This document shows, one piece after another, positions 28,118 to 51,979 of a stretch of DNA of 64,000 bases. The position numbers were made by a program, and so were the translations under genes. The notes beneath the pieces are model-generated. The model did no database searches, had not been told where the DNA came from, and was given only the letters and a program-made list of their open reading frames with translations. Within the stretch, counting starts at the first letter, position 1. Each line of letters starts with the position of its first letter. The stretch lies in contig JAZURI010000010.1 in assembly GCA_045606105.1 (NCBI GenBank), forward strand, positions 32,001 to 96,000, read 5' to 3'. The DNA is from Spirochaetia bacterium (GTDB taxonomy: Bacteria; Spirochaetota; Spirochaetia; CADAEX01).

Positions 28118-28822
28118 TCAGAACTTACGGAACCTTCCGTCTGTCTTGTTGGTTTCGGCTATATTGCCGGCCATGGTATCCTCCCAGAACACGCAGGGAA
28201 CATTCCAGGTCTTTCCGTACAGGGCTTCAAGAAAAGCCGGTGCGTTTACAGGGACAGGCACATCAAGCCCCTGAAACGGAATCCTTTCCAGACCGTTATC
28301 CTTCCATGAGAGTTTAATTGCATTGAGTGTGTCGGATTCATCCCGCAGATAGGACCAACACCAAAGATTTCCTCTGCTTCTTGTAAAGACAAAAAGATCG
28401 AAATGGATAACGCCGTTGGAATACTTTTCCACAAAGCCTTCGTTAGGCATATAGTTTCCGTTCATGCTGTAGCGGTATTCTCTGACAAAGCCGATTTTCT
28501 CAAAACTCTTGAACAGGTTTTCATCATATTGGTCTGAAAAAACGCCCATCTCCAGGTCGTCGTCATGCTTTATGAAATCTTTTTCCCGGATTGCCCCCAG
28601 CAGGGTACCGAAACAGATGAAATAGTCAATTCCCAGATTATCAAAAGCATTGAGTACCTCCGGAAAATATTTCCTGACATTGGACTGGAAAACCACCGAT
28701 TTTGCCAGTTGCTTTTTCTCCCCTCTCTTTCTCCTGAGGGTTTTCAGGATGCCTCCCGTAATGGGATTGCTTTTCAGCAGCCGTTTGGCCGCACGGTAAA
28801 TTTTATTATCGTAAATACTCAA
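28118..28822 (-). CDS. LicD family nucleotidyltransferase-fold protein
   Basis: FGTLLGAIREKDFIKHDDDLE, HFDLF, P.N...FL..LYG..W..P. Confidence 0.82.
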   Translation of the reverse strand: MSIYDNKIYRAAKRLLKSNPITGGILKTLRRKRGEKKQLAKSVVFQSNVRKYFPEVLNAFDNLGIDYFICFGTLLGAIREKDFIKHDDDLEMGVFSDQYDENLFKSFEKIGFVREYRYSMNGNYMPNEGFVEKYSNGVIHFDLFVFTRSRGNLWCWSYLRDESDTLNAIKLSWKDNGLERIPFQGLDVPVPVNAPAFLEALYGKTWNVPCVFWEDTMAGNIAETNKTDGRFRKF

Positions 28823-36460: not shown

Positions 36461-37168
36461 ATGTCCATAATAAAACTGGAAAATGTAAAAAAATATTATA
36501 CTCTGGGAAAAACAGAGGTTTCTGCCATAAAAGGGGTCTCCTTCGACATAGACAGAGGAGATTTTGTCTCAATAATCGGCCCTTCCGGTTCCGGAAAGTC
36601 CACCATCCTCAACATGATCGGATGTATTGATGTTCCGTCTGAGGGAAAGGTCATAATCAACGGCCGGGAAACTTCCCATCTTTCCGACAGGGAGATAACC
36701 GAGCTCCGCCATGAGGTTCTGGGCTTCATCTTCCAGTCCTTCAACCTTCTTCCGGTACTCAATGTCTATGAAAACATTGAATTTCCGTTCCTTATCGGCA
36801 AGAAAAAGTTCACTTCCGCCGAAAAAAAGGAGCATAAGGATTATATCGAGCACCTTATCGATGCCGTAGGGCTTACAAACTGGAGAAATCACCGTCCCAA
36901 CGAGCTTTCGGGAGGACAGCGGCAGAGAGTAGCCATTGCCCGTGCCCTGGCAACAAAACCTAAGGTTATCCTTGCAGATGAGCCTACCGCCAACCTGGAC
37001 AGCAAGACCGGAGAGGATATCATTGCCCTCATGAAGAAAATCAACAAGGATCTCGGTACAACATTTATCTTCTCAACCCATGACCAGAATATTTTCTCTA
37101 TTGCAGACCATGTGATCCGCCTGAAGGACGGACTTGTGGTTGAGGATTTCAGACAGACCGATAATTAG
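36461..37168 (+). CDS. ABC transporter ATP-binding protein, LolD/MacB type
   Basis: GPSGSGKST, GFIFQSFNL, ELSGGQRQRVAIARAL, ILADEPTANLDS, STHD. Confidence 0.95.
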   Translation: MSIIKLENVKKYYTLGKTEVSAIKGVSFDIDRGDFVSIIGPSGSGKSTILNMIGCIDVPSEGKVIINGRETSHLSDREITELRHEVLGFIFQSFNLLPVLNVYENIEFPFLIGKKKFTSAEKKEHKDYIEHLIDAVGLTNWRNHRPNELSGGQRQRVAIARALATKPKVILADEPTANLDSKTGEDIIALMKKINKDLGTTFIFSTHDQNIFSIADHVIRLKDGLVVEDFRQTDN

Positions 37169-38364
37169 AAGCTGGAGGAAATTTCCACAAACAGGGTAAA
37201 TGCCAGCTTGGAATCGATAGGAAAGTCATCGTAGAAGTCATCATCCAGTTCCTTGTGTCCATAGTTCCAAGGTACTGCAAGATTAATTTTCACATGCTTC
37301 CACGGAGAAACACTGAGCCCGCCGATAAACTGTCCCGATTCGCTTTCAACGGAGTGGAGCCATTTGAGACCAAGACTGACAGGGGTTCCGAACATGTTGT
37401 TCCAGTTGGTGGCCATACCCAGACAGTGATCCGGGTCATCTTCTATTCTTCCGTCGTAGTAGTACTCGCCGTAGAGCTTATAGTCCTCGCCGAATTCCTT
37501 GTAAAAACCGAACAGAGCCTCGTGGGTATATTCATCAAGATCATTGTGGGTAAGTACATAATCTGAAAAAAGGTCGGTTCCCAGAATAACAGTCTTGACA
37601 CCGCCCATTATCTTTTCACCGTCTGCCTCGTTGAAGAGTCCGGACAATGTAAAGTTCACGCTTCCGAAAGTCTTGTCTGCCAGACCGGCAAAGGAAATCT
37701 CATCGCTGTGGAGCTTGTCCTCCTCTCCCGGATGAGGGCGCTTCTTATAAAGGGAAACCAGGGAAACCCCGTCAAGCATGTTGGGCAGGGACATTCTGAA
37801 AGCAGTTCCGTTTTCGCAGTCATCCATGAAGTCGGCAGGACGGAAAAGACGGCCGTGACCCCAGGTCATGTAGAATTTTCCCAGCCTGAGATAGGCCTTG
37901 TCCAGCCAGTTGTAATCGCAGTAAAGCTCATCAGCCTCCAGCATGGACCAGGTATCGCTTCCCTCCTCCGAATCAAGCTCTGTCATGAGCTTTCCGAAAA
38001 TGCGGATAGTGGAATCGGGTCTTATGTCAAATGAAACGGTAGCCTTTGAGTAGGCACCTGCAACCTTTTCAGGCTCGGAATCGGGAGGAAGCTCGTCCCA
38101 TCCCATACCGCCACCTCCGCGGACCAGGAAATGCCCCTTTACGGTTACCTTGTCGCTCTGCTCGAACTGGCTGCGGTAATCTATGTCGTTGGGAACCTCG
38201 ATGACTATATCTTCCTGAGGCTCTTCAAATATGCTGTCCAGCTCCGGTTGTATCTCCGGTATCGGTTTCGCTTCAGATTCAACCTCCATCTCCAGTTCTG
38301 TCTGGGCATGGAGAGCAAATGGAATCATAAGAGCAATTACAGCTGCAGCAAGAAGTTTTTTCAA
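37165..38364 (-). CDS. putative outer-membrane beta-barrel protein
   Basis: Signal peptide, acidic N-terminus, ELYCDY....YLRLGK...TWG.G..F.P.D, and a terminal Phe (FVEISSSF). Confidence 0.6.
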   Translation of the reverse strand: MKKLLAAAVIALMIPFALHAQTELEMEVESEAKPIPEIQPELDSIFEEPQEDIVIEVPNDIDYRSQFEQSDKVTVKGHFLVRGGGGMGWDELPPDSEPEKVAGAYSKATVSFDIRPDSTIRIFGKLMTELDSEEGSDTWSMLEADELYCDYNWLDKAYLRLGKFYMTWGHGRLFRPADFMDDCENGTAFRMSLPNMLDGVSLVSLYKKRPHPGEEDKLHSDEISFAGLADKTFGSVNFTLSGLFNEADGEKIMGGVKTVILGTDLFSDYVLTHNDLDEYTHEALFGFYKEFGEDYKLYGEYYYDGRIEDDPDHCLGMATNWNNMFGTPVSLGLKWLHSVESESGQFIGGLSVSPWKHVKINLAVPWNYGHKELDDDFYDDFPIDSKLAFTLFVEISSSF

Positions 38365-38370
38365 AATTTT

Positions 38371-39141
38371 TTACCTGTTTACCTTTTCAAGATATTCTTT
38401 AGTATACAGGGAATCAGGCTGTTTGTTAAGGGATGGGTTCTTGATTGTTACCATAGTTCTTTCATATTCGGTCTTTTCTCCCACCCTGCGGAATACCAGA
38501 TGATCCTGAATAACAATATTTACGGGAACCCAGCGGTCGGAAACCTTCTGATAGCTTGGAATGGCAGAGGTTCTCATAAGCTGCCCCGAAAGGCTGTAAT
38601 CCTCTATTTTCCTTACCAGCCTGTCCTCTGAGACCCAGATTTTTACCTTAGGGAATGAAACCTTGTTGTTTTTGGCTTTCAGAGTGAATACGGTACAGTC
38701 AAACTTACCCAGCTTCTGCTTGGCTATCGCTTCGATTTTGTAATCCTTGGAATAGCTGGAGCCTGTAAAGTCTGAAATACGGAAGCTTGAATTCTCGAAC
38801 CTGTCCTTGGCGCTGGTGAATGTGAAGCTTTTTCCCACAGGGTCGTAAAGCCAGAGGTTATCTCCCAGTTTCAGGTATCCCTTTCCCTTGTCTGCCACAG
38901 GCTGCAGGATAAGAACCAGGAACTTTTCATCCTTGTCTCGGCGGAACATGGCTGCCACAGTTGTGGAGGTGGATCCATCCGGGTCCTTCTTGACTATGGT
39001 ATATTCGGCCGAAAGGTCGGTTTCGTTGAAGGCAACCAGGCTGTCGACCTGCTTCAGCATCTCCTGATAATCGGTATGCTGGGCAGAAGCAAAGGCTGCG
39101 GAGCAAAGTATAAGTACTGCAATCAATAAAAATTTCTTCAT
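38371..39141 (-). CDS. LolA-like outer-membrane lipoprotein-sorting protein
   Basis: Signal peptide; F....P..DKG.GYL..GDNLWLYDP, F.NSSF..SD, K.E.YS.SG.LMRT. Confidence 0.8.
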   Translation of the reverse strand: MKKFLLIAVLILCSAAFASAQHTDYQEMLKQVDSLVAFNETDLSAEYTIVKKDPDGSTSTTVAAMFRRDKDEKFLVLILQPVADKGKGYLKLGDNLWLYDPVGKSFTFTSAKDRFENSSFRISDFTGSSYSKDYKIEAIAKQKLGKFDCTVFTLKAKNNKVSFPKVKIWVSEDRLVRKIEDYSLSGQLMRTSAIPSYQKVSDRWVPVNIVIQDHLVFRRVGEKTEYERTMVTIKNPSLNKQPDSLYTKEYLEKVNR

Positions 39142-39145
39142 GGCA

Positions 39146-40435
39146 TCATTCCTTTCTGAGAGCTTCCGCAGGAGGCATGAGAGAGGCCTTTCTTGCCGGG
39201 CCCCAGGCTGCAGCCACTACGGCAGCTATCATGAATACAAGATTAAGAAGCACTGTCTTCAGGCTGATAAAGAACTGAAGTCTTCCGTTTTCGGTAAACA
39301 TTCCGGCCACTGATATGCTTCGTAAATCAAACAACCCTATGAAATAAAAAGTTACAAGTCCGAGTATAAAGCCCAGTATTGAGGAGATTACCGCCAGCAT
39401 CACGGCTTCGTAGATAAATATCCTCTTTACAGCCCCGGCCTGCATTCCCATGGCCCGCATGGTTCCTATTTCCCTGGTTCTCTCGTAGACCAGAACCCGG
39501 TATGTGTTCAGGATTCCCATCATTACGATAAGGAGGAAAACAAACAGTACAAAATAGGTACATACTATAAAGGCATCCAGAAGGTTCTTTAGCTGCTCCA
39601 GCTGTGCATCCACCGACATGACTCCCGCAATCTCGTCGTTGTTGTGCCTGTTTCCGGATCTGTAGCTGCTGAAATCCTTTCTGGTTTTGATAGGGGGAAA
39701 AACATCCTTGGTTTCTGCCAGGGAGCTGCGGATCTTTTCGGTCAGCTTAGGGATATCGGCCCCCTCCTTGGCATACACGGCTATCTCAGTAGCCCAGTCA
39801 TGCTCCTTGTTCATCAGAAGGTTCAGGATTTCACGGTTCATATAAGCCGCATATCCGAAGATATTGGTCTCCCCGAAGATTCCCTTTACCACAAGATTGG
39901 CCACATTGTACTGCCCCTCGATGGTCTTTATGTAGATAAGTACATCGTCACCCATACGGGCCCCCAGAAGACGGGCCGCCTCCGTACTTATGATTATTCC
40001 GTTCTTTCCCTCTTCACCAAGCATGTTCTCCATGGCTCCTTCCACAAACGGAAGCCTGGAAAGCTCCTTTCCTTCGCTCTTGAAATCGGCACCGACAGCC
40101 CTGAGAAGCCTGATATAGTTTCCTCCGAAGAAGAGCCTGACCTCGCTGCCGTAATAGATGGTTCTCGGAGAGATGGTCCTTATAGGAAGCTTCTTCTCCT
40201 GAATGATTTTTATATATTCCTTTGAATCAGGAATGGACATTCCGGTATTTTCAAAGCCGTATACTATAACATGGCCTGAAAAATAACGGGCTGCCTTGGT
40301 CTTGATGGTTTCAAGGGCTCCGTATGAAAGACCTGTAAGAACGGTAATGAGCATGAAGCCCACCGCAATGGCCAGACCCATGAGGGCATATCTTTTTCGC
40401 TGAAGGAAAAGATTCCGGAGTGCAATACGGAACAT
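39146..40435 (-). CDS. ABC permease, FtsX/LolCE-like
   Basis: IALRNL...RKR, large periplasmic loop, GILNT....VYERTREIGTMRAMG, PARKA....PAEALR. Confidence 0.9.
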   Translation of the reverse strand: MFRIALRNLFLQRKRYALMGLAIAVGFMLITVLTGLSYGALETIKTKAARYFSGHVIVYGFENTGMSIPDSKEYIKIIQEKKLPIRTISPRTIYYGSEVRLFFGGNYIRLLRAVGADFKSEGKELSRLPFVEGAMENMLGEEGKNGIIISTEAARLLGARMGDDVLIYIKTIEGQYNVANLVVKGIFGETNIFGYAAYMNREILNLLMNKEHDWATEIAVYAKEGADIPKLTEKIRSSLAETKDVFPPIKTRKDFSSYRSGNRHNNDEIAGVMSVDAQLEQLKNLLDAFIVCTYFVLFVFLLIVMMGILNTYRVLVYERTREIGTMRAMGMQAGAVKRIFIYEAVMLAVISSILGFILGLVTFYFIGLFDLRSISVAGMFTENGRLQFFISLKTVLLNLVFMIAAVVAAAWGPARKASLMPPAEALRKE

Positions 40436-40436
40436 A

Positions 40437-41882
40437 TCAGCCCCTCCCCATTATTGCCACAGGCTGAATCTTTACGGCAATGGATACCGGATAGATCCAG
40501 GAAAGGGCACCCACCACCGCGGCTCCCGCAAAGTGCATGAGTATGTTTTTCAGGGTTACCGCAGGCTGAAGCCTGTCGCCGCCGAACATGGTTATGAGAA
40601 GATCGTTTTCCAGGGCAATTCCGCCGGAGAAACAGAGTGAGATTATCACACCCAGAATAATACCTATGGTGGAAGCCGCCAAAGTAAGGATCATGGATTC
40701 CGAAATGAAAAGGAGACTGATGAACGGCTTGCCTGCACCGATTCCGCGCATGGTTCCTATTTCGTAGCTTCTTTCCAGTACGGAAATGACAAGAGCGTTC
40801 ATGATAACCAGAACGGCCCCTATGATGATGAAGATAATACCGATATTGAATGCAGCCTGAAGGGCAAATACCATCTGGGCACTTATACCGGCTCCGCTTC
40901 TCCACCCTTTTATGTTTACGCTCCAGTGGTTCTCGTCCGCCATTCCGTCAAGCTCACTCCTGAGGGCTTTTGCATCGGATGTCTTGAAAAGGACAAAGCT
41001 CCAGGCTGTGGATGAGGCCTCTACTATGGCATCCCTGTCTGATGTATCTGCAAGGATGGTCTCTATGTCGCTGAGAGAAAAGGTTTCCTCTGTTTCGGAA
41101 ACCGTATCCTCTGCCTCGGCAAAAAGATCGTCGAAATCAAAGCTCTCTTCCTCTGTGTCGGATTCTGTTGTTTCTTCCTCCACCACATTTCCTGCAGTGT
41201 AGTCTATAAGTCCCCTTACCACGGTCGGATCGGCAAGCAGGATGGCATCAAAAGGGGCCCCCTTGTTTACATACCGGTGACATCCGGCAAAGGTTCCCTT
41301 CCTGATCTTGAAGCTGCCGTTGGAATAAAGGCTGAGCTTTATTTCGGTTCCCGGCTGAAGGGTGTGTCCCAGCTTTGCCTCTGCCTTCTGAAGAAGAGGC
41401 TCACATATAAAGATTCCGCCTGATGAAATATCGGCAGGATTTCCCCGTACTATCTCGATTTCCGGGCAAACGCTGAAATAGCTGTCCGGATCGATTCCGA
41501 ATACAGCGGCGGTATTCCTGAACTTCCCTGTCTCTACTGCGGCAGCGGCTGCAACCACCGGAGTATAGCTTTCGGCATTCTCCAGATATTCAAAGGCACT
41601 GCTTATCTCCGCATAGGCCGGAATAGAGGGGATAACCTCGTAGTCATCAACAACCGGTATCTCGTTTCCGAAAAGGCTGAACGAGGTTTCGCTTTCCGCA
41701 GCCAGCACCACATCTCCCGTAAGGCTGTTCACAAAGGAATCCCGTACTCCCTTGTCCGCACTTTCGAATACCGAGTTGGAAAAGAAAAGGAAGGCCACAC
41801 CTACGGCAATCAGTGTGCCGAGAAGGAGAGTCTTCCGCTTGTTGCGGTATAGGTTTCTAAGTGCCAGCTTCAGAATCAACAT
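40437..41882 (-). CDS. ABC permease, FtsX/LolCE-like, with an acidic insertion
   Basis: LALRNL.RNKRKT, N....SVLERSYEIGTMRGIGA, YP...A..IQPV..M. Confidence 0.9.
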   Translation of the reverse strand: MLILKLALRNLYRNKRKTLLLGTLIAVGVAFLFFSNSVFESADKGVRDSFVNSLTGDVVLAAESETSFSLFGNEIPVVDDYEVIPSIPAYAEISSAFEYLENAESYTPVVAAAAAVETGKFRNTAAVFGIDPDSYFSVCPEIEIVRGNPADISSGGIFICEPLLQKAEAKLGHTLQPGTEIKLSLYSNGSFKIRKGTFAGCHRYVNKGAPFDAILLADPTVVRGLIDYTAGNVVEEETTESDTEEESFDFDDLFAEAEDTVSETEETFSLSDIETILADTSDRDAIVEASSTAWSFVLFKTSDAKALRSELDGMADENHWSVNIKGWRSGAGISAQMVFALQAAFNIGIIFIIIGAVLVIMNALVISVLERSYEIGTMRGIGAGKPFISLLFISESMILTLAASTIGIILGVIISLCFSGGIALENDLLITMFGGDRLQPAVTLKNILMHFAGAAVVGALSWIYPVSIAVKIQPVAIMGRG

Positions 41883-42745
41883 TGTGCTTTATACTGCCTT
41901 ATAAATTCCTCGTAATCCTCATAGGGTGAGGTATAGGTAAAAATACGGTAGGTCGGTTTTTTAAGCCAGTAACCGTAAAGATTGTATTTTTCTGCCAGAC
42001 TTCCCTCTCCGAATGCTTCCTTCTTTATCGTGATGACAGGACAGCGCCGCTCCCCTATCAGATATTCTTCAGGAATATTGCTGCATATAAGGTCGGAAAC
42101 CCGGTCTATCCGTTCCCTGAACCTGTCCAGGTCCAGTTCCTTGAGAACCTTGATGAAATGCTCGAAGATAAAGGTAGGTGCTGTGCTTGGAATCTGACAC
42201 TGCTCCGCAAATTTCCTGTAGCGGGCCAGATTGAGATATGAACATACATCCTCTTCCACGAAATTTTTCCATTCATCCCGTTTTACACAAACCACGGCCA
42301 GCCCGATATAGGATGCAAGCTGCTTGTTGAGACAGGTACAGAATGCCTTTGTCCCTTTCGGAATATCGTAATAGGGAAAGGCACTTACAGCATCTGCTAC
42401 ACCGTTTTCCTTGTAGAAAGGGGTGGAGTTGCTGGATTCAAGCCTGCAGAACATCTCTGTCTCGGGAAAGGATTCATCCCGCAGGTAATTTTTCAGCATG
42501 CTTGTCCACTGTTCCCTGAAATGCCCTTCGTTTCCGATTATCTTAAGTCTGTAGTTCATGGAATACATGATGGCTTCGATTCCAACGGTGGCACTGCCGG
42601 GAATAAAGAGGACATCATAATCCTCAAGACCGAACTTAAGGGTAAAAAGTTCACGGAGCTCCTTGAACTGGTCAAAAAATTCCTTGTCCCTGTGAGAGCT
42701 GTGTATTCTTACGGAATCTGAAAAATATGCATTTGGCCCGAACAT
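41876..42745 (-). CDS. class V PLP-dependent aminotransferase-like protein
   Basis: FGP, HRD.EF, LFIPGSAT.GIEA, ESS.S, DAVSAF, CLNKQL....GLA.V (Lys at the PLP position), P.T.P. Confidence 0.7.
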   Translation of the reverse strand: MFGPNAYFSDSVRIHSSHRDKEFFDQFKELRELFTLKFGLEDYDVLFIPGSATVGIEAIMYSMNYRLKIIGNEGHFREQWTSMLKNYLRDESFPETEMFCRLESSNSTPFYKENGVADAVSAFPYYDIPKGTKAFCTCLNKQLASYIGLAVVCVKRDEWKNFVEEDVCSYLNLARYRKFAEQCQIPSTAPTFIFEHFIKVLKELDLDRFRERIDRVSDLICSNIPEEYLIGERRCPVITIKKEAFGEGSLAEKYNLYGYWLKKPTYRIFTYTSPYEDYEEFIRQYKAQC

Positions 42746-43980
42746 TATATTCCTTCTCTGACCTTAACCATGAAATCCGCAATCCTCTTTCCTGCTTCTC
42801 CCCTGTGCTGCCATGCCTGATTTCCTGCGGCTTCCCTTTTTTCCGCCACATCCGGATTTTCGGTCATCCCTTCAATAATATTTTTTATCTCTTTAAAATC
42901 CTCTTCCCTGAGCTCTCTCCCTATTTCCGGAAGAATCCTGAACTGCCAGAGCTCATGAGGAACCTTTCCCGCATCGTAAGGACGGGGATCAAAGCCGCCG
43001 ATAACCGAAAGAAAAGGCTTTTCACGAAGAAAAGCATAATCCAGGGTAATACTGGAAAAGTCAGAAATCATTATATCAGCTTTTGAAAGAGAAACAATAT
43101 TATCAGGGGCAAAATCCCACTTAATTTTACTGTTTCCCGCATATCTTTCCTGCAGACGGTCCAGCATCTCCTTTTCCACCGACCTTGACTGGGGATGGGG
43201 CCTTATTATCATGTCAAATCCGGCATCGGCCAGCGGATCCAGAAGCCTCTCGCCGTACCTTGAAAGAAGACCGCTGCTGCCCCAGCTGGGTGAAACCAGA
43301 ACCGTGAAGCCATCTTTTTCCCCGCAGACTTCCTTCATTACCGAATCAAGCTTTTCAGAAAGCACATCAAGATAAGGAGAGCCCACTGTCACCAGCTGCT
43401 TTTCAGGCAGGCCGCGGAGTTTTTCCAGATATCTGATATCCTCCTTCTGGTAATCTCCCGAAAGAAGAACGGAATCGAAATAGTCCAGTCCGTAGCGTTT
43501 GTAGAGAGTGGCATCATTTATCATATGAAGCACATGGGAATAATGCTTTACCCCCTTGGAGCGCTTGAGCTGAAAGACATCCAGTCCGGGAGTGGTCATG
43601 AGACAGACATCGGCCTCCAGAAGATTGAGCCTGGCAAAGGCCTTGTTGCCTGCACCGATATATTCACACCGCACATGCTGAAGTTTAAGGTCATTTATCG
43701 GGTCATCCTCCGCAGAGGTAAGATAAAGAAGAGGAAGCCCCCTTCTTTCAAACTCCTCCACCACCGGTTTAAAGGTATTCCAGTACTGCTTTCCCTCGCA
43801 GTAAACCACATAAGGGACAGTCTCCCCCTTCTTCTCCTTTCTGCCTCCGGCAAAAATAACCCGGAGCTTTATGAAAAAGGCCCTGGAAGCAAAGTACAGC
43901 AGGGCAAAGAGGCTGATGAATACGGAAAAGAGCATGCTTCCCGTACCCGGATCTATGTATAGAAGATTGAAGTCAGTCAT
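42745..43980 (-). CDS. CDP-glycerol glycerophosphotransferase (TagB/TagF-like) family protein
   Basis: N-terminal TM with YIDPGTGS, then G.PY.D, VLVSPSWG, RPHPQ, ADIMISDFSS...DYAF..EKP. Confidence 0.8.
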   Translation of the reverse strand: MTDFNLLYIDPGTGSMLFSVFISLFALLYFASRAFFIKLRVIFAGGRKEKKGETVPYVVYCEGKQYWNTFKPVVEEFERRGLPLLYLTSAEDDPINDLKLQHVRCEYIGAGNKAFARLNLLEADVCLMTTPGLDVFQLKRSKGVKHYSHVLHMINDATLYKRYGLDYFDSVLLSGDYQKEDIRYLEKLRGLPEKQLVTVGSPYLDVLSEKLDSVMKEVCGEKDGFTVLVSPSWGSSGLLSRYGERLLDPLADAGFDMIIRPHPQSRSVEKEMLDRLQERYAGNSKIKWDFAPDNIVSLSKADIMISDFSSITLDYAFLREKPFLSVIGGFDPRPYDAGKVPHELWQFRILPEIGRELREEDFKEIKNIIEGMTENPDVAEKREAAGNQAWQHRGEAGKRIADFMVKVREGI

Positions 43981-46564
43981 TGAGCTTCTCCCAGTTTCCG
44001 GCCTTGTAGATATCCCTGTTTACCCGGTACACGGGAGTAAACCGGTAAGTGTTCCTGTTGTGCTCGTTGGCCTCCACGGGACCGGTACCCACCAGTATGC
44101 CGTTCTTCTTTCCGCTGCTGTCCAGCGGTTTCCCGGTAAACGGATTCAGAGGCTTCTCTTCAAAGCCGGATACTGCCAGCACCGGTACATCAGCCACGGT
44201 CATGAAGGTGCGGTCTGTCCTGCAGGGCCCCTCTGACCCGAAATCCTTGAAAAGGAGCAGTGAGCTGTAGGCATTTATAAGGTCGGGATCTCCCTCTGCC
44301 TCCAGAGCCTTGTTTTCCTGCCTGAAGAACCGGCCGTGGTCCGAGGCAATGATTATCCTGGTATTGTCCCAGACACCGTTTTCCCTCATCCAGTCCATCC
44401 ATTTTCCCAGCATCCTGAAGGTGGCTGCATTCACATGATAATGACGGAAAACATATTCGCCGCCAATGTTGTTCTCTCCCCGGTCGGTAATTTCCCGCTG
44501 CAGGGTATAGTCGGGATACTGCAGATATGCAGGCTCGTGGGTGGTATCGTTGTCTATGGCAAAATATGCAGAGCCCTCTCCTTCGGTATCGGAAAGCTCA
44601 CAAATATAATCCAGGGCAGAATACCAGTTTATGAGAACTGAATTCTCATCCCGCCCCTTGCTTTCGTCGGAGCTCCACCAGTCTCCGTGGTCGTAGATGA
44701 TTCCCCTGAGACATACCGGAGAAATACGGAAGAAGTTGAAGAACAGGAAATCCCTCTTTATAAAGTCGGAAAGGACAAAGCCCTCCAGCTCCATGCCGTG
44801 CTCCTTTCTCCACAGCTTCTCGTAGCGGCCGCTGAGATTGAGGGCATTTATATCATCGTCAAATATGGAGTTGTCGGGAATCCAGCTGAAGTTGGCCAGA
44901 GGAGCATCGGTAACGGTGATATCGAAGTCCTTGCTGCCGAAATAGGCAGGCAGCATCTTCAGGGATTCGTTATGCTTCTCCCGGAGTGTCTGATCTGTCC
45001 TTTTGTTGGAGTTTTCAGGAAGATATTCGTAGCCTCCGAAAAGGGCCGGGGCACAGAGAATGGTACAAGAGGAAGGTGAAACTGTGTTGGGGTAATGGAC
45101 AAAGCCAGAAAACTGCGCCGCCACCTCGGGCATCTCTTCAAAGATGGCAGGAACAAAGGAGCTGATTCCCCGGTCCAGCATCATGACAATAACATTTTTT
45201 CCCGTTCTGCTGAAATGGAATACCGGTTTTAACGAATCTTCGTTCCGGCTGTTTTCTCCGGAGGCAACTATTGCTTCCAGCCTGTGGAACTCACTGTTTA
45301 TCTTAAATATGTTGTACCCTGAAAAAGCGGTCAGGGAAAGAACCAGGACTACAGTCAGGGATTTTATGTACTTTTCCTTTTTCAGGCAGAAAACCGGAAC
45401 CAGAACTGCCGCCACAGCCGCAAATACAGCCATATCCACAGGGAATTTGGCAAGCTCGTTCTTTATCTTCAGTCCGCTTTCAAATTCAATTCCGTTCCCC
45501 ACCAGTACAGTACCGTAGTTGCCCGGAAAGGCATAGGTGTTCACCAGAGACCATACCACTGCGAAAACCATGAGAAAGGCCATGGCAGACTGTACCTTTT
45601 TCGAGAAAAGGAAGTAGATGGCAACAAGCCAGGCTGTTATGCCCAGAGTCTGGAAAAACGGAAATTTCACCAGGCTGAGGGGATTATCATAAGGTTCTAT
45701 AAATGAAAATTCGGCTACAGAGGAGCTTACAAGGGAGGTTGGTATAACTATACCTACCAGCAGGAGAAATGCACTGCAGACCAACATGAAGAGTCCAAGA
45801 CGGTTCCGGTCATTTTCAAGGAGAGGATTCAGAGGTTTTGAGAGAATATTTCCCGCTTTCTCCCTCAGCGCCGCAGCTGCAGCCGGCATTTCCGGAAGCC
45901 TGATCTTATAGCAGATATTCTTGAAAAGTGAAAAAACATTGTTAAGGGTCCAGTAAAGGACAAGTCCTGCCGGGGAATTGTAGAGCAGCACCAGAAACAG
46001 GGCCGCCATACCGTAGAGCTGCATCTTTTCCTTCAGCATGAAACCCTTTACGTATACTGCGCTGGCGACAATATTAATCAGGGTCATGGCTATAGGGAGA
46101 ATATTTATCGGAAAGCTTCCTATGGTAAAAAGACGGTCGGGACTTCCCAGATCTCGGAAAATCCAGAATTCAGCCCCTTTAAGCATCTCCAGATTTGAAA
46201 GGAAGGAATAGGCCGCAATGAAGAACGGAACCTGAATCATCAGGCTTATGGAGCTTCTGAGAGCCATTACGGGATGATAATGATTCTGCCTGTAGAAGGT
46301 GGTGAGAATCATATAGCGCTCATCCCCCTTGAACACAGCCTTGATTTCATCTATCTCCGGCTTGAAACGGGTCTGGATATCCCGCTCCTTCTGCTGCCAT
46401 CGCTCTGCAATGATGTAGAGAGGCAGGGAAAGGAAGCTTACTGCCAGGCTTACCGCAGCTATGGAAAGCCCGTAATTGTCAAAAAGCCGGTCGGTAAAAA
46501 GGAAGACCGTTTCTATGAGAAGCTCAATAGGATAGATAAAAACAAGATAGAGAAAATCTGCCAT
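43973..46564 (-). CDS. YidC/Oxa1-domain protein fused to a sulfatase/LTA-synthase-like domain
   Basis: About aa 1-220 is YidC-like (GLSI...LPL, KP.I..IK, LMIQVPFFIA.Y, DL..PD, ILPI.M, PAGLVLYW..NN). Extra TM segments follow. The C-terminal domain has NVIVMMLD, HEP, NTRIIIASDHG. Confidence 0.85.
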   Translation of the reverse strand: MADFLYLVFIYPIELLIETVFLFTDRLFDNYGLSIAAVSLAVSFLSLPLYIIAERWQQKERDIQTRFKPEIDEIKAVFKGDERYMILTTFYRQNHYHPVMALRSSISLMIQVPFFIAAYSFLSNLEMLKGAEFWIFRDLGSPDRLFTIGSFPINILPIAMTLINIVASAVYVKGFMLKEKMQLYGMAALFLVLLYNSPAGLVLYWTLNNVFSLFKNICYKIRLPEMPAAAAALREKAGNILSKPLNPLLENDRNRLGLFMLVCSAFLLLVGIVIPTSLVSSSVAEFSFIEPYDNPLSLVKFPFFQTLGITAWLVAIYFLFSKKVQSAMAFLMVFAVVWSLVNTYAFPGNYGTVLVGNGIEFESGLKIKNELAKFPVDMAVFAAVAAVLVPVFCLKKEKYIKSLTVVLVLSLTAFSGYNIFKINSEFHRLEAIVASGENSRNEDSLKPVFHFSRTGKNVIVMMLDRGISSFVPAIFEEMPEVAAQFSGFVHYPNTVSPSSCTILCAPALFGGYEYLPENSNKRTDQTLREKHNESLKMLPAYFGSKDFDITVTDAPLANFSWIPDNSIFDDDINALNLSGRYEKLWRKEHGMELEGFVLSDFIKRDFLFFNFFRISPVCLRGIIYDHGDWWSSDESKGRDENSVLINWYSALDYICELSDTEGEGSAYFAIDNDTTHEPAYLQYPDYTLQREITDRGENNIGGEYVFRHYHVNAATFRMLGKWMDWMRENGVWDNTRIIIASDHGRFFRQENKALEAEGDPDLINAYSSLLLFKDFGSEGPCRTDRTFMTVADVPVLAVSGFEEKPLNPFTGKPLDSSGKKNGILVGTGPVEANEHNRNTYRFTPVYRVNRDIYKAGNWEKLND

Positions 46565-47310
46565 TATTTAAGAAGCTTTAATACTCCGTTTACTGCATAA
46601 CAGAAAAAATTGAAGGCTGCCTCTGGCAAAGGAAGCTTCAGTTCCTTTCTGTAGATATCCCAGGTCCAGCCGAAAACCTTCAGCTTGCTGCCGGATACGG
46701 ATGTACTGCTTACCCGGTAAAAACCTTCCACAGTTCCCGTATTTCTGGCAATGAACCCCTTTCTGAGAATTTCAAGCCACATGAGATAATCTTCATGATG
46801 TATTTCTTTCTGGTATACCTTGCCCACCTTGGCTGTATCGTAGATTCCGGTAAGGTTTCCGATACAGTTTCCCTTCAGGAGGGTCCTGAAGTCTGCCGAA
46901 GCGGGAGAAATCACAGTATTTGTCACATTGCCGGCTTCATCCATTTTCTTGTACAGGGAAAATACGGCCCCGCAATTCTTTTCCTCAAACAGCGGAAGCT
47001 GATGTGCCAGCTTTTCCGGCAGCCACATGTCATCGCAGTCCAGAAATGCAATATACCTTCCTGCAGCCTCTTTTATTCCCACATTGCGGGGAGTTGCCGG
47101 CATCCGGGTGGTACGGTCATTGATAAGCAGCCTGATACGGCTGTCCCTTTCCGCATAGGCCTGTACTGCAGAGCGGGTATTGTCTGTGGAAAAATCGTCT
47201 ATTACCAGCAGCTCCCAGTAGGGATATGTCTGGGCAATAACCGATTCTATTGCCTTTCCTATGTACTTTTCGCCGTTATGACACGGCATGATTACAGAAA
47301 CAGTTACCAT
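46564..47310 (-). CDS. glycosyltransferase family 2 (TuaG-like)
   Basis: VSVIMP.HN, WELLVIDD.STD, RN.GI..A.GRYIAFLD.DD.W.PEKL, HEDY.MWL. Confidence 0.9.
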   Translation of the reverse strand: MVTVSVIMPCHNGEKYIGKAIESVIAQTYPYWELLVIDDFSTDNTRSAVQAYAERDSRIRLLINDRTTRMPATPRNVGIKEAAGRYIAFLDCDDMWLPEKLAHQLPLFEEKNCGAVFSLYKKMDEAGNVTNTVISPASADFRTLLKGNCIGNLTGIYDTAKVGKVYQKEIHHEDYLMWLEILRKGFIARNTGTVEGFYRVSSTSVSGSKLKVFGWTWDIYRKELKLPLPEAAFNFFCYAVNGVLKLLK

Positions 47311-47312
47311 AA

Positions 47313-48779
47313 TTACCTGAACAGATATTTTTTCAGCTTGGAGAAGGCCTTGAGAGAACGCTTCAGATCGTCAAAATCGGTAAGCCCCACCTTGAGACGG
47401 TGCAGGATATAGCTTACCCTGAGATAATATTTCTTCCTGGCTATATTGCAGAATTCCACCATCTCCTCTGCACTGAGTCCCGGAAGATTCAGCAGTGTGT
47501 TGTGAGTGCCGTCCTCCTTGCAGTACTGGTCATATTCCAGGGTTAAATATCCTTTGGAACGGGCCAGATTGTAGGCGTCGGTTCCCGGATAAGGAATCAG
47601 CGGGAAAAACTGGGCTGTATCGGTATTGAGCTTAAGAGCCAGCTTCAGGGTATCCTCCATGGTCTGCTTTGTCTCTCCGTCGTTTCCCACCATATAGCAG
47701 GCATGGATCAGAAGTCCCGCCTTCTTGGCATTGGCCACATAGGAGTGAATCTGCTGAAGAGTGATTCCCTTCTTGATGTTATCCAGGATTTCCTGACTTC
47801 CGCTCTCGATTCCCGGAATGATGAGACGGCATCCCGCTTTCTTCATAAGCTTCATGGTTTCCAGATCGAGGGTGTTGACCCTGGCGTTGCAGAGCCATTT
47901 AAGCCTTTTGTTCAGCTTTTTTTCTATAAGGAGACGGGATATTTTCTTTACTCTCTCCTTGTTGATGGTAAAGGTGTCGTCTTCGATAACCACCTCTTTT
48001 ACATCGGGGAAGTTTGCGGCAATGTACTCAAATTCCTCCACCACGTTCTCAGGAGTTCTGGCCCTGAACTTACGGCCGTGCATTATCTGCGGATAGACAC
48101 AGAAGCTGCAGTAGCAGGGACATCCTCTTCCTGTGAAGATCTGCACGGAAGGATAGGTGGCTGCGGCAAAGAAATAGTCCCTTTCATCCAGATTTTCCTT
48201 TATGAATTCGGAAGCAAAAGGAATGTCATCCATATCGTGGATTACCGGCATGGCAGGAGTTCTGACAAACCCTCCCTCTTTTCTGACAAAAAGACCTCTC
48301 GATTCAGCTGGATCTCCCCCCTTATCAAGAGTATCTGCCAGTTCCTTTACGGAATAATCGAATTCTCCCATGGCAATGGCATCTGTTGCAGTGCTGTAGC
48401 CCATGGTTTCCTCAGGACAGGCTGTAGGATGAGTTCCTACCAAGGTAATATAGGAATACGGATAAAGCTCCTTAAGTGCTGTACCGAACATTACATCGCT
48501 CTTGATGGAAGGAGTACTTGTATTAAGGACAAAAAGAAGGTGTTCGTCGGAGGAGGCAAGAGCCTTTACCTTTTCGAGGGTCTGCTCCTCGTTGAGAGGC
48601 TTGGCCGGAGCATCGATAAAATCCACCCGGTGCCCGTGCTTCTGACAGTAGGCTGCCGCATAGATAAGCCACAGCGGATAATAAAGTGCGCCGCTTTTGG
48701 TTATGGCCGGGCTGCGGGACTCCCTGGAAAATTTTCCGTATTCTGCCTTGAAAGGCGGGTTTATGAAAACTATATGCAT
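47313..48779 (-). CDS. B12-binding-domain radical SAM protein (HpnJ-like)
   Basis: N-terminal cobalamin-binding-type domain (YPLWL.YAA, GTHPT, GEFD), GRGCPCYCSFC, EDDTFT, GIESGSQ.IL..IKKG, PYPGT. Confidence 0.85.
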   Translation of the reverse strand: MHIVFINPPFKAEYGKFSRESRSPAITKSGALYYPLWLIYAAAYCQKHGHRVDFIDAPAKPLNEEQTLEKVKALASSDEHLLFVLNTSTPSIKSDVMFGTALKELYPYSYITLVGTHPTACPEETMGYSTATDAIAMGEFDYSVKELADTLDKGGDPAESRGLFVRKEGGFVRTPAMPVIHDMDDIPFASEFIKENLDERDYFFAAATYPSVQIFTGRGCPCYCSFCVYPQIMHGRKFRARTPENVVEEFEYIAANFPDVKEVVIEDDTFTINKERVKKISRLLIEKKLNKRLKWLCNARVNTLDLETMKLMKKAGCRLIIPGIESGSQEILDNIKKGITLQQIHSYVANAKKAGLLIHACYMVGNDGETKQTMEDTLKLALKLNTDTAQFFPLIPYPGTDAYNLARSKGYLTLEYDQYCKEDGTHNTLLNLPGLSAEEMVEFCNIARKKYYLRVSYILHRLKVGLTDFDDLKRSLKAFSKLKKYLFR

Positions 48780-49405
48780 AACAAACTCCTGAGCTGTTCA
48801 ACGCTTTCGGCTGTAGTAAACGGATAATCTTTGCCGGGTTCAAAACCGAAGCCGTAGGTTACCCCGATAAAGTCCACTCCGGCAGCCTTTGCCCCTTCGG
48901 AATCCACGGTGCTGTCTCCAACCATTACAGCCTCTTCCTTGCTGATACCGGCAAGGGTACAGCACATTCCGATAATGTCGGCCTTGGTCATGCTGTCTCC
49001 GGCATCCATACCGCAGATGGCATCAAAAAGGGAATCTATACCCAGAATTTCAGTAAGCTTACGGGCAAGAACCTGATTCTTCATGGTGGCAACAGCAAGC
49101 CTGAGCCCTTTTTTACGACAATCGGCAAGCAGCTTCTCCATACCGTCATAAACACGGGACATTGCCAGCCCTGTTTCGCCGTAGTGCTTCCGGTATATGG
49201 TTATGACCCTGCGGGTCTCCTCCTCGGAAAGCCCCATAATAACATTGTATGTCCTGAACAGTCCCGCGCTCAGCAGAGGCTTCATGTCTGCTTCATCCGG
49301 TTCCTGCAATCCCATTTCCCGGATGGTATGCCGATGGGTATCCAGAAGTCCTTCCGAAGTATCGGCAACTGTTCCGTCCAAATCAAATATAATAAGTTTT
49401 TTCAT
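48770..49405 (-). CDS. HAD-family phosphatase
   Basis: FDLDGT..D, AT.K, K, MVGDS..D..GA..AG..F.GV.YGFG. Confidence 0.9.
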   Translation of the reverse strand: MKKLIIFDLDGTVADTSEGLLDTHRHTIREMGLQEPDEADMKPLLSAGLFRTYNVIMGLSEEETRRVITIYRKHYGETGLAMSRVYDGMEKLLADCRKKGLRLAVATMKNQVLARKLTEILGIDSLFDAICGMDAGDSMTKADIIGMCCTLAGISKEEAVMVGDSTVDSEGAKAAGVDFIGVTYGFGFEPGKDYPFTTAESVEQLRSLLCI

Positions 49406-49411
49406 TTTTCT

Positions 49412-50239
49412 TCAATATTTTCCGAAATCAAGCTCTGCAACCTGATGGGTTTTTCTTTCACTTTCAGGAGGCAGCTTCATATAATCACCGAAAAGCTCGG
49501 TAAGAAATCCGTGGTACTCCTTAAGGACCATGAACTTTTCATCCTCAAACTGAAGCTCGGTATAGCCGTCAAAAAGGTATGCGCTGCGGAATTCCTTAGG
49601 TGCCCCGTAACGCCCTGCCAGATAGACTCTGGTATTTGTATTTTTTTTGTTCAGTTTATAGGGATAATTCAGAATTCTGTTTCTGAGCCAGGCTTTAGGA
49701 ACGAAGAAAAAGCAGATTTTCATCATTTCCGCCACAATTCTCTTGAGCTTGGTGGTTCCGTTCTTATAGCCGTTTTTCATGGAATAAAGAACAGACAGGA
49801 AATTAAGCTGACGGAAGTAAAGGGTAGCCAGAAAACGGTTGTCATGAATCGTGTCGTAAGGAAGGACATCTACCAGAAATCCGCACTGACTCAGGGTCTT
49901 TGGCTGCTGTACAGTCCTGTAGACTGTATCCTTCAGAACCACCTTGGAAAAAAATGTTCCTACTTTCGGATCGTGCTTTAAGCTCATGAGTGAAAATTCA
50001 GGCCCCAGCTCCTGCGGCGCCACCTCGATAAAACGGTCGTAGTCGGAACGCATCATGGCAATGTCGATGTCATCGTCCCACGGGATAAAGCCCTTGTGTC
50101 TTACGGCTCCGATAAGGGTTCCCCCGGTAAGGAAGTATTTTATGTCATGCTTGGTACAGATTCTCTTGATTTCCTTAAGAACCTTAAGCTCCAGAAGCTG
50201 TACCTTCCTGAGCTCTTCAGGTGTCAGTGTCTTAGTCAT
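49412..50239 (-). CDS. LicD family phosphotransferase
   Basis: GGTLIGAVRHKGFIPWDDDIDI.M.R.DY, VDV.P.D, FE, L...FGDYM.LPP..ER..H. Confidence 0.92.
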   Translation of the reverse strand: MTKTLTPEELRKVQLLELKVLKEIKRICTKHDIKYFLTGGTLIGAVRHKGFIPWDDDIDIAMMRSDYDRFIEVAPQELGPEFSLMSLKHDPKVGTFFSKVVLKDTVYRTVQQPKTLSQCGFLVDVLPYDTIHDNRFLATLYFRQLNFLSVLYSMKNGYKNGTTKLKRIVAEMMKICFFFVPKAWLRNRILNYPYKLNKKNTNTRVYLAGRYGAPKEFRSAYLFDGYTELQFEDEKFMVLKEYHGFLTELFGDYMKLPPESERKTHQVAELDFGKY

Positions 50240-51266
50240 GTTTCATACTCTCTATAAGTCGGCTGATCATTCCATTCATATCTGTTTTTGCCCGCCAGCC
50301 CAGTTCTTCAAGCTTTGATGTATCAAGAACCACCTTGAGTACAGGATTATATCCAAGCTTTGTAACATCCTCTGCCAGATCAAAAATCACTTTGACGGAA
50401 GATGTCGGATCCTGTCTGCAGAACAATTCTGCCAGCTCTGCAATGGAAACAGCTGTTGTACTGTTTGCTATGTTATATGCTTCTCCGGCATTTCCACGGA
50501 AGAGAACTGTAAGGATTCCCTCTGCGGCATCTGCAGTATAACAATAATTGCGTACAGTTTCACCCTTAGTACGGAGAACTATATCCTTTTTTTCAATTAC
50601 ACTTCTGGCAAACTGAGCAAAAACCCTGTTGTCATTATAAGAAACACCGGCTCCGAAAGTCTGGCACAATCTCGCAACCTTTACAGGAATTCCGAACTGG
50701 ACGGCATAGGCCTTGCACAAGGTTTCGGCCATTCTCTTGCTTTCAGGATAACTGGATCTTACAGACATGGGATCTGTAAAACCGGAATCTGATTCTCTGA
50801 CAACTCTGATTCCGACTGAGGAATCAAACTGTCCGTAAACTTCAAGGGAACTCAGAAAAACAAAGCCCTTGATTGCTTTTTCCCTGCATTGCCTGAGAAG
50901 ATTTTCCGTTCCGAAGAGAATTGTTTCTATCGTATCAACCGGCTTATCAACAAAAGTTTTTGAGTCGGTGGTACCTGCCCCGTGGATTATGTAATCAACC
51001 TCTATCCCCGAAATATCCAGTTCCTTTATATCAGAGAACAAAGGGATAATATTAGCCGGAGGATTCTTCCCGAAAACTGCTTCAAATCTGCTTCTGCTTC
51101 TGCATGCTGCATATATTGTACAGGATTTACCGGCTATGGCTTTTACAAGCAGGGAACCGATCAACCCCGTTGCGCCGGTTATAAGCACTGATTTTCCGAT
51201 GCAGTTTTCAATAATACTGCTTTCAGAAAGGTTTTTTATGTCTTCTGCAAGAATGGTATTCATCAT
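50232..51266 (-). CDS. NAD-dependent epimerase/reductase, probable CDP-alditol synthesis
   Basis: ITGATGLIG, IIH.A, SS.EVYG, RSSYPESKR.AE, R..QTFG.G. Paired with the IspD/TarI gene. Confidence 0.8.
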   Translation of the reverse strand: MMNTILAEDIKNLSESSIIENCIGKSVLITGATGLIGSLLVKAIAGKSCTIYAACRSRSRFEAVFGKNPPANIIPLFSDIKELDISGIEVDYIIHGAGTTDSKTFVDKPVDTIETILFGTENLLRQCREKAIKGFVFLSSLEVYGQFDSSVGIRVVRESDSGFTDPMSVRSSYPESKRMAETLCKAYAVQFGIPVKVARLCQTFGAGVSYNDNRVFAQFARSVIEKKDIVLRTKGETVRNYCYTADAAEGILTVLFRGNAGEAYNIANSTTAVSIAELAELFCRQDPTSSVKVIFDLAEDVTKLGYNPVLKVVLDTSKLEELGWRAKTDMNGMISRLIESMKHD

Positions 51267-51979
51267 AATCCGAATATCTGCTGATTTTCCCGTACATCAT
51301 AGAGGGCACGGAAGGTATAGAAATCGGCAGGTGTTGTAATCTTTATATTGTCGGCTGTACCGTAAACCACAAAAAGCTCGTGGCCGTAGTGCTGCATAAG
51401 GGAAGCTGAATCTATCATATTTGTGCTTCCGTCGGCTATGGCCTTTTCATGGGCCTCTGTAAGCTGTCCCAGAACAAAGCACTGCGGAGCCTTGGCATGG
51501 AAGCATCTGCTTCTGTCCTTGATACTGCATATCTTGCTTCCGTCCAACTCGACTATGGTTTCCTGGGCCGGTACAACGGTAATTGCGGAACCCTTCTCCT
51601 TTACAGACCTGATACAGTCGGAAATAAGGGTTTCTGTTACAAAAGGGCGGACTCCGTCGTGAACCAGAACCACGGAATCGGCCGGAGCAAATCCCGCAAT
51701 GGCTCTGAGACCGTTATAAATCGACTGCTGCCCTGTTTCCCCGCCCGGAACCACGGCTCTGACCTTGATCATTCCGTACTGAGAAAGAAGCTTTTCCAGA
51801 TAAGGAATCCAGTCCTTGATACAGGCAATGACTATGTTGTCTATTTCAGGATGCTTCTGGAAGTTTTCCAGGGTATGGATAATAATTTCCTTGCCGTAAA
51901 GGCTGAGAAACTGCTTTGGCTTTGATCTGCTGTTCATCCTGCTGCCGGATCCTCCGGCAAATATAAGTACATTATTCAT
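51263..51979 (-). CDS. IspD/TarI-family cytidylyltransferase
   Basis: IFAGGSGSRM....PKQFL, GG.TGQ.SI.NGL, VHDGVRP, PQ.F, NIKITTP.D. Confidence 0.9.
   Translation of the reverse strand: MNNVLIFAGGSGSRMNSRSKPKQFLSLYGKEIIIHTLENFQKHPEIDNIVIACIKDWIPYLEKLLSQYGMIKVRAVVPGGETGQQSIYNGLRAIAGFAPADSVVLVHDGVRPFVTETLISDCIRSVKEKGSAITVVPAQETIVELDGSKICSIKDRSRCFHAKAPQCFVLGQLTEAHEKAIADGSTNMIDSASLMQHYGHELFVVYGTADNIKITTPADFYTFRALYDVRENQQIFGL

Follow-up and report, generated by a model that had tools for sequence, protein, structure and literature searches.

Proteins of the YidC/Oxa1 group are established insertases and have more recently been recognized as scramblases. A positive groove residue is important for insertion by Gram-positive YidC. 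Among the membrane-anchored enzymes of the alkaline-phosphatase (AP) superfamily, LtaS and EptA use Glu as their first metal ligand, and PbgA is regarded as non-catalytic. Systems in which a cytoplasmic loader, a membrane passage step and a periplasmic transferase act on a lipid-linked small donor are represented by GtrA/GtrB/GtrC and ArnC/ArnEF/ArnT. Here we analyzed a stretch of 64,000 nucleotides (the window) from a Spirochaetia bacterium (NCBI GenBank assembly GCA_045606105.1, contig JAZURI010000010.1, positions 32,001 to 96,000). Its minus strand contains an open reading frame (ORF) of 863 aa in which a YidC-like module is fused to a membrane anchor and a putative AP-fold transferase, and this ORF overlaps a TagF-like gene. 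The positive groove residue of the YidC-like module is lost across the whole family, and the TagF-like gene is an obligate, highly conserved partner, a status that an initial annotation, made from the sequence alone, had overlooked. The observation of that annotation, a YidC domain fused to an LtaS/sulfatase-like domain inside a glycan locus, was confirmed, and its interpretation as a whole was partly supported. The features of the gene pair are given below, with transmembrane abbreviated as TM and cytidine diphosphate as CDP.

43973..46564, minus strand: 863-aa fusion ORF, YidC-like module, five-TM anchor and putative alkaline-phosphatase-fold transferase (ORF list, translation, full-length homologues of 848-971 aa)
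45905..46564, minus strand: YidC/Oxa1-fold module, aa 1-220, with interface helix, TM1, cytoplasmic C1 hairpin and TM2-TM5 (PF02096, 3wo7 alignment, model helices)
46436-46438, minus strand: codon of Ser43, the groove site, within the YidC-like module
45812..45904, minus strand: poorly conserved cytoplasmic linker, aa 221-251 (pLDDT 53-64, low identity)
45263..45811, minus strand: second membrane domain, aa 252-434, five TM helices, LtaS/EptA/PbgA-like anchor (model helices, PbgA 6xlp_A alignment)
43976..45220, minus strand: predicted extracytoplasmic alkaline-phosphatase-superfamily domain, aa 449-863 (VIA-align, invariant residues)
45173-45175, 45062-45064 and 44336-44341, minus strand: putative catalytic codons D464, T501, and D742 with H743
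42745..43980, minus strand: 411-aa TagF-like putative CDP-alcohol phosphotransferase, downstream of the fusion and overlapping it by 8 nt (PF04464, 26 bits against a cut-off of 22.1)

The fusion frame is uninterrupted over its 863 codons; its coordinates had been annotated exactly, and the strand, which had been omitted, is minus. An AlphaFold2 model was built from 37 full-length homologues and reached a mean predicted local distance difference test (pLDDT) of 85.3 and a predicted template modelling score (pTM) of 0.69. The YidC/Oxa1 core annotated at about aa 1-220 was recovered by Pfam family PF02096 (60KD_IMP) on aa 31-218 (E 4e-22, 79.4 bits against a cut-off of 35), and the NCBIfam model of the YidC C-terminal domain (TIGR03592) scored 81.1 bits, slightly under its cut-off of 84.3. 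Through phmmer comparison with PDB sequences, Bacillus halodurans YidC2 (3wo7) was matched over fusion residues 8-227 with E 1.5e-9. The C1 coiled-coil hairpin is present, formed by model helices 31-77 and 81-93 which align to the C1 region of 3wo7. The core shares 28% identity with the YidC core encoded by the same genome.

The phmmer alignment placed ilIRLallPL of YidC2 opposite laVSFlslPL of the fusion, and the groove arginine, R72 of B. halodurans YidC2, therefore corresponds to Ser43. The loss of this arginine, suspected from the first, extends to all 37 full-length homologues, in which the site is occupied by S (19), T (16) or N (2), and by R or K in none. The polar groove residues Q111, N164, N208 and N209 of the module are invariant in the same homologues.

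As had been proposed, the fusion is not the housekeeping insertase. The genome, of 1.46 Mb and 99% completeness, yields another PF02096 match, scoring 217 bits. It is a YidC of 583 aa (214 bits for this protein) with a periplasmic domain, encoded between yidD and jag/khpB on the same contig about 35 kb away:

L001 394-2145 (G000 contig C10, outside the window): housekeeping yidC, in yidD-yidC-jag context

Its groove site aligned to Ser43 is Lys, not Arg. The fusion gene stands in a glycan operon instead of the yidD/rnpA-yidC-jag context. With the canonical gene found in this arrangement, the reading of the fusion as the only yidC of the genome was rejected.

Between the two domains, the model contains TM helices at residues 252-281, 295-319, 322-345, 374-393 and 397-434, matching the about five additional TM segments annotated initially. 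The C-terminal domain gave only sub-threshold matches in Pfam and NCBIfam, so that a fold search was needed. Of the two Pfam domains expected from the initial annotation, 60KD_IMP passed its cut-off and Sulfatase (PF00884) did not, scoring 16.6 bits against 25 in this protein, unlike many homologues that have a precomputed PF00884 hit. A family profile compared with PDB sequences matched only the DHG-motif region of sulfatases, phosphonate monoester hydrolases and LtaS (LtaS E 0.012). By VIA-align, model residues 454-863 were aligned to sulfatases, phosphonate monoester hydrolases and LtaS/LtaP with Z 19-21 (about 300 residues, root-mean-square deviation 3.2-4.2), and LtaS/LtaP (Z 19.4-19.8) stood level with the sulfatases. 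The best full-length Foldseek matches were MCR-1, PbgA, LtaS and EptA (E 4.5e-8 to 1e-6); the PbgA alignment (6xlp_A, E 1.6e-7) spanned model residues 226-863. The structural comparison with LtaS and EptA suggested earlier thus returned the anticipated fold.

The motifs first read as those of the AP superfamily carry residues D464 (MLD), T501 (SSCT), H676 (HEP) and D742/H743 (SDHG), which are invariant in 37/37 fusions and in 18/18 C-module sequences; the residues of the metal site and the nucleophile are present. T501 starts model helix 501-510, 37 residues past D464, in the nucleophile place of the superfamily, and is followed by ILCAP (consensus T-L-x-G-A-P). By this spacing and secondary structure, T501 may be considered equivalent to LtaS T300. 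No C/S-x-P-x-R sulfatase motif was found at the nucleophile position, which indicates a Thr-type transferase or hydrolase. The identity of a formylglycine sulfatase (S1) was rejected on the invariant T501 and the missing CxPxR. Since the fold scores tie LtaS-type with sulfatase-type proteins, the LtaS-type assignment rests on the nucleophile residue. The model and the conserved residues together support the C-terminal part as a Thr-type AP-superfamily transferase on a five-TM anchor, as in LtaS, EptA and PbgA.

The model of the TagF-like protein (pLDDT 89.6) confirmed a TagF-type GT-B fold at the level of prediction, with TagF 3l7i_D as the best Foldseek match (2.4e-13) and TagF and a capsule polymerase as structural matches; sequence identity to TagF/TarL is about 16%. 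An invariant N-terminal motif from Y8 to S15 is followed by a hydrophobic helix, H262 in the RPHPQ motif is invariant, and an ISDFS motif aligns to TarL. From this motif conservation, CDP-glycerol- or CDP-ribitol-dependent phosphotransfer is a candidate activity of the protein.

The pairing of the two genes was followed in 77 related loci, in which ORFs were called and labelled by BLASTP against the proteins of the window and neighbours were also clustered. Many of these loci end at contig ends and the neighbour counts are therefore lower bounds. A TagF-like homologue was found by clustering in at least 50 of the 77 loci. It was the next gene downstream, on the same strand, in 33 loci and the second one downstream in 10, and it lay immediately upstream in 6; the next commonest neighbours were GT4 (25 loci) and a PntC-aminotransferase fusion (19 loci). 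Profile search of 31 related genomes revealed 17 with both a YidC-like paralogue beyond the housekeeping one and a TagF-like gene, and 14 with neither, a match to be read as a pattern and not as a statistic because related genomes are not independent. The 14 comprised one genome of the same genus (92% complete), one of the same family (81% complete) and 12 of other families. Among 29 TagF-like matches, 26 lay within 200 nt of a YidC-like match and one lay 3.7 kb away; the remaining two were fragments with no YidC-like match listed on the contig. The 26 include five genomes with a separate YidC-like gene of about 230 aa, and in such split forms it is the YidC-like gene (PF02096, 94 bits) that adjoins the TagF-like one. 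One complete genome contained the split YidC-like gene followed by a 781-aa AP protein. Tandem fusion paralogues sharing one TagF-like gene are common.

The complex of fusion aa 1-250 with the TagF-like protein was predicted in three runs beside three controls, and the interface score ipSAE was 0.77, 0.77 and 0.79 against 0.00, 0.00 and 0.01. In calibration, solved complexes attained this mark in 58 of 80 cases and mismatched pairs in 2 of 110, which is a rough guide here as custom alignments were used. The runs shared at least 91% of contacts, and the partner pLDDT was at least 82. TagF-like residues 9-37 were predicted to contact fusion residues 50-60, 98-115, 164-171, 179-186 and 208-216 in the cytoplasm-facing groove, including the invariant Q111, N164, N208, N209 and S212, and the C1 hairpin (73-93) to contact TagF-like residues 135-137, 161-166, 189-191 and 331-334. 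Invariant positions were enriched at the interface in the fusion (17/39 vs 55/250, p 8e-4) and in the TagF-like protein (15/33 vs 69/411, p 5e-5), values which are not independent of the input alignments. The TagF-like protein is thus predicted to bind the YidC-like module at two places, with the N-terminal helix in the groove and the catalytic domain against the cytoplasmic hairpin.

The most conserved part of the fusion is the YidC-like module, with a mean pairwise identity of 66%, against 24% in the linker, 37% in the second TM domain and 47% in the AP domain. The mean column identity of the TagF-like protein is 67%, and it remains 45-71% identical across loci with different cargo genes. 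Considering this conservation and the shared TagF-like genes, the YidC-like module and the TagF-like enzyme read as a constant loader-and-dock pair serving variable, outward-facing transferases.

The accompanying cargo genes seem interchangeable between loci. Aminoethylphosphonate (AEP) genes, encoding phosphoenolpyruvate (PEP) mutase, phosphonopyruvate decarboxylase and a fused cytidylyltransferase-aminotransferase, were found in 28/77 related loci. This fused enzyme has the domain make-up of Tde1415, which makes cytidine monophosphate-AEP (CMP-AEP; PMC6697681). The genus of the window forms its own TagF-like clade in a quick tree, without AEP genes; in their place it has IspD-like and SDR, LicD, HAD and radical-SAM genes. 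The supply genes in the locus of the window are the IspD-like gene with the SDR gene, and a TagD-like gene. PEP mutase was not found in the 99%-complete genome, and a phosphonate cargo was rejected for this genome on that ground.

Fusions of this kind are abundant in Treponema-type spirochaetes, in line with the initial guess that other spirochaetes would have them. A word-indexed search scored 8000 candidates, of which 7277 proteins passed E <= 0.001; the best 120 matches were almost all 847-971 aa long with 98-100% query coverage, and the few with a named source were called "YidC/Oxa1 family membrane protein insertase" and came from Treponema, Breznakiella and uncultured Spirochaetia. When residues 225-863 were used as the query of an exhaustive HMMER search, 2115 cluster representatives passed E <= 0.001 and 884 passed E <= 1e-30, and among the 150 matches listed most were fusions of about 900 aa. 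In species-representative genomes, relatives were encoded by at least 564 stretches of 600 pattern matches. Full-length fusions of 848-971 aa recur on numerous independent contigs, and complete genomes have them too; five genomes of the same genus contain orthologues 62-88% identical over residues 1-863 or 3-862. The homologues are mostly fused. Natural split forms exist in some genomes, composed of a YidC-like gene of about 230 aa and then an AP protein of 766-781 aa, and their split point is the linker at aa 221-251. Unfused C-modules with an own N-terminal helix also exist without a fused insertase.

Several observations on distribution stand apart. The ESM Atlas contains clusters with the same two Pfam domains, commonest in Campylobacterota and Pseudomonadota, which we take as a lead only. 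Fusions were also seen on contigs of metagenome-assembled genomes (L023, L072, L075, and also L055 and L085) with the labels Prevotella, Desulfovibrionaceae, Clostridiales, Paratractidigestivibacter and Anaerovoracaceae; the TagF-like genes of L023, L072 and L075 are nested in Treponema clades on short branches, which points to mis-binning or recent transfer. Four genomes of the same genus (G001, G002, G003 and G006) have, at a distance of 12-14 kb from the orthologous fusion, a second, diverged one (open frames of 958-980 aa) accompanied by a TagF-like gene of its own; the genome of the window has one pair only.

The pair is included in a long co-directional envelope-glycan locus. This contains rmlABCD-type genes, an ABC-2 exporter pair, a Wzx-type flippase, GT2 enzymes, an IspD-like cytidylyltransferase with an SDR gene, two LicD genes, a HAD phosphatase, a B12-binding radical SAM enzyme, a TagD-like cytidylyltransferase, a Bac_transf initiating transferase and a UDP-glucose dehydrogenase, together with two soluble-looking sulfatase-family proteins and LolCDE/LolA-like genes. 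The neighbours of interest are:

46564..47310, minus strand: 248-aa GT2 glycosyltransferase, whose stop overlaps the fusion start by 1 nt (PF00535, 113.7 bits)
47313..51979, minus strand: upstream operon-like run of B12-binding radical SAM, HAD phosphatase, LicD, SDR reductase and IspD-like cytidylyltransferase genes (Pfam)
47313-48779, minus strand: B12-binding radical SAM enzyme of this run, between LicD/HAD and GT2, in the same place in L012 and L013
41876..42745, minus strand: 289-aa protein without known family, directly after the TagF-like gene, a place conserved in the same genus
28819-30060 and 30063-31352, minus strand: two sulfatase-family proteins of about 420 aa (PF00884, 45 and 36 bits)

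The overlaps of the fusion with the GT2 and TagF-like genes, mentioned in the initial annotation, measure 1 nt and 8 nt, respectively. The GT2 gene is conserved at its position in the same genus only (L012 and L013), and the gene order of the upstream run is repeated in these two loci. We consider the run a candidate set of head-group supply genes, and its B12-binding radical SAM enzyme may modify the head group or a sugar. The 289-aa protein matched no Pfam family at E <= 0.001 and only at chance level at E <= 0.1; its homologues (BLASTP label "unk289") were found in L012 and L013. The sulfatase-family pair has no polytopic N-terminus and adjoins the second LicD gene (28118-28822). These two proteins and the fusion are the only AP-superfamily genes in the genome, and no other membrane AP-type transferase was found there. 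LolCDE-like and LolA-like genes and a family-less protein of 389-399 aa flank the pair (window 36461-42745), and the same Lol-type flank was observed in the complete genome of another genus (L009 693-2650); this link may be synteny only.

The reading that we prefer, although it is tentative, is that the pair is a two-enzyme trans-membrane relay, with the fusion as its membrane core, putting a phosphate-linked head group on the cell envelope. The YidC-like module would be the dock, its hydrophilic, membrane-embedded groove holding the N-terminal segment of the TagF-like enzyme and its cytoplasmic hairpin clamping the catalytic domain. Working at the cytoplasmic face, the TagF-like enzyme would take a CDP-activated alcohol, probably CDP-glycerol or a CDP-polyol made by the cytidylyltransferases of the locus of the window, and move the phospho-alcohol onto a membrane lipid. 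The head group would then cross the membrane along the YidC-type groove. On the other side Thr501 would take it as a covalent phospho-enzyme, with D464, D742 and H743 as the metal site, and would pass it on to an acceptor in the periplasm, a glycan or glycolipid that the surrounding locus makes. The lipid-linked intermediate, the groove passage and the identities of donor and acceptor are what we infer here. Escherichia coli YidC was reported to scramble phospholipids in vitro (bioRxiv 10.1101/2023.09.01.555937), so that a groove which flips or presents a lipid-linked donor, as the initial annotation also supposed, is plausible. In a bolder and more doubtful form, an Oxa1-superfamily fold might have been turned from an insertase into a fixed trans-membrane hub. 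The TagF-like segment would stay permanently in the groove like a frozen insertion intermediate, and through the conduit so formed a phospho- or phosphono-head group linked to a lipid would travel from a CDP/CMP-dependent loader in the cytoplasm to the fused periplasmic LtaS/EptA-type transferase.

Several points weigh against such a relay. The predicted complex gives model confidence rather than measurement, obtained with custom alignments, and a TagF-like helix permanently filling the groove could block the lipid path instead of lining it. The usual activity of TagF-family enzymes is to lengthen a polymer on an acceptor linked to a lipid, and none is known to load a single head group onto a lipid. 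Ordinary phospholipids supply the head groups used by LtaS, EptA and OpgB, with no dedicated loader, and the AP domain may therefore not need the product of the TagF-like enzyme. The high identity of TagF-like proteins across loci with differing cargo genes also poorly fits a strictly cargo-specific donor.

In another explanation the YidC-like module is a scaffold only. The AP domain would use ordinary phospholipids for glycerol-phosphate or phosphoethanolamine, the TagF-like enzyme would independently build or extend the acceptor polymer in the cytoplasm, and the module would tether both, perhaps thinning the membrane or supplying phospholipid through scrambling; there would be no special lipid-linked donor. 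As far as is known, the characterized Thr-type membrane AP transferases (LtaS, EptA and OpgB) all use bulk phospholipids, the TagF family consists of polymerases and primases on lipid-linked acceptors, matching the Foldseek result of TagF and a capsule polymerase, and the 45-71% identity across cargo types is readily accommodated; the gene pairing and the predicted complex fit a scaffold equally well. It leaves unexplained why the YidC fold is the most conserved part with Q111, N164, N208 and N209 invariant in the groove, why an invariant polar N-terminal motif of the TagF-like protein is predicted inside this groove, and why CMP-AEP or CDP-alcohol genes keep company with the pair. We regard a pure scaffold as unlikely, while giving it serious weight.

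A dedicated insertase or chaperone is an improbable explanation. The module would insert or fold its own ten-helix enzyme in cis, a role also considered in the initial annotation, or would insert the N-terminal anchor of the TagF-like protein, and the predicted complex would be an insertase-client snapshot. The module keeps its fold, its C1 hairpin and most YidC motifs, and the place predicted for the TagF-like helix, inside the groove, looks like that of an insertion intermediate. Against this, the positive groove residue is absent in 37/37 homologues, the normal YidC of the genome could serve such clients, and C-modules with an own N-terminal helix exist unfused. A transient chaperone is also unlikely to be the most conserved part of a protein, or to occur one-to-one with a single client gene.

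A non-catalytic sensor like PbgA/YejM, sensing or regulating envelope lipids, is very improbable: PbgA 6xlp_A was among the best full-length structural matches, but the Thr nucleophile and all metal ligands are invariant in 37/37 and 18/18 sequences and the gene sits in a biosynthetic operon. An assembly or frameshift artefact joining two genes has a next to negligible probability and was rejected, because in spite of the natural split forms the frame is uninterrupted and full-length fusions exist on many contigs, in complete genomes and as orthologues in five genomes of the same genus.

If the relay reading is true, a large family that keeps the YidC fold, loses its key charge and is wired to two phosphotransferases would represent a second, non-housekeeping role of YidC, and would be a natural system for how the YidC groove handles lipid or helix cargo. 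The relay would be an unrecognized and widespread route for decorating envelopes with glycerol-phosphate, polyol-phosphate, phosphocholine or aminoethylphosphonate. The fusion may also bear on how CMP-AEP and similar activated head groups get to extracytoplasmic glycans; the later phosphonate tailoring steps have been called enigmatic (Rice et al. 2019). Treponema of the gut, rumen and termites, in which the family is abundant, have surface glycolipids that influence how they interact with the host. The current gene name "YidC/Oxa1 family membrane protein insertase" hides the likely role of the family. We found no description of a YidC-AP fusion or of its pairing with a TagF-like gene in those parts of the literature that were covered (YidC fusions, phosphonate and teichoic topics, PMC6697681 and PMC8942020), whose supplementary gene-neighbourhood figures may show such genes. 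The near-match in the covered text was "multiple sulfatases" in Selenomonas phosphonolipid clusters (PMC8942020). Three points are believed to be new: the two genes match exactly in their phyletic distribution, the TagF-like gene adjoins the YidC-like one where the fusion is split, and a groove-helix complex is predicted.

Each part comes from a known superfamily, and the combination, with its apparent use of a YidC fold, matched no described system that we found. Like YidC/SpoIIIJ/Oxa1 (3WO6/3WO7, 3WVF), the fusion module has a five-TM core, a cytoplasmic coiled-coil hairpin, the Q-x-P motif in TM2 and the YW..N motif in TM5. It differs from the insertases in lacking a positive groove charge, a periplasmic P1 domain, and a signal or lipobox; moreover, an AP-type enzyme is fused to it or encoded next to it, and a TagF-like enzyme is its partner. 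With LtaS/LtaP, GacH, OpgB and EptA/MCR-1 the fusion shares five TM helices followed by a predicted extracytoplasmic AP fold, the putative Thr nucleophile, which begins a helix about 37 residues past the first metal-binding acid, and the D-H pair of SDHG. Compared with the LtaS/EptA group, its sequence similarity is confined to the metal motifs, its first metal ligand is Asp and not Glu, an extra YidC-fold module precedes the anchor, and there is a genetic tie to a putative cytoplasmic CDP-dependent enzyme, which no member of that group is known to require. The likeness to PbgA/YejM (6XLP, 6V8Q) covers the TM anchor and AP fold at residues 226-863, whereas the catalytic residues of the fusion are invariant. 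The partner resembles TagF/TarL (3L7I, 8VA1) in its GT-B-like TagF fold, the His of RPHPQ and the ISDFS motif, and is distinguished by its own invariant N-terminal motif and hydrophobic helix, predicted to lie in a YidC-type groove. The likeness of the proposed relay to the Gtr and Arn systems is one of logic only, by analogy, all three protein families being unrelated, and the relay would move a phospho-alcohol or phosphonate instead of a sugar.

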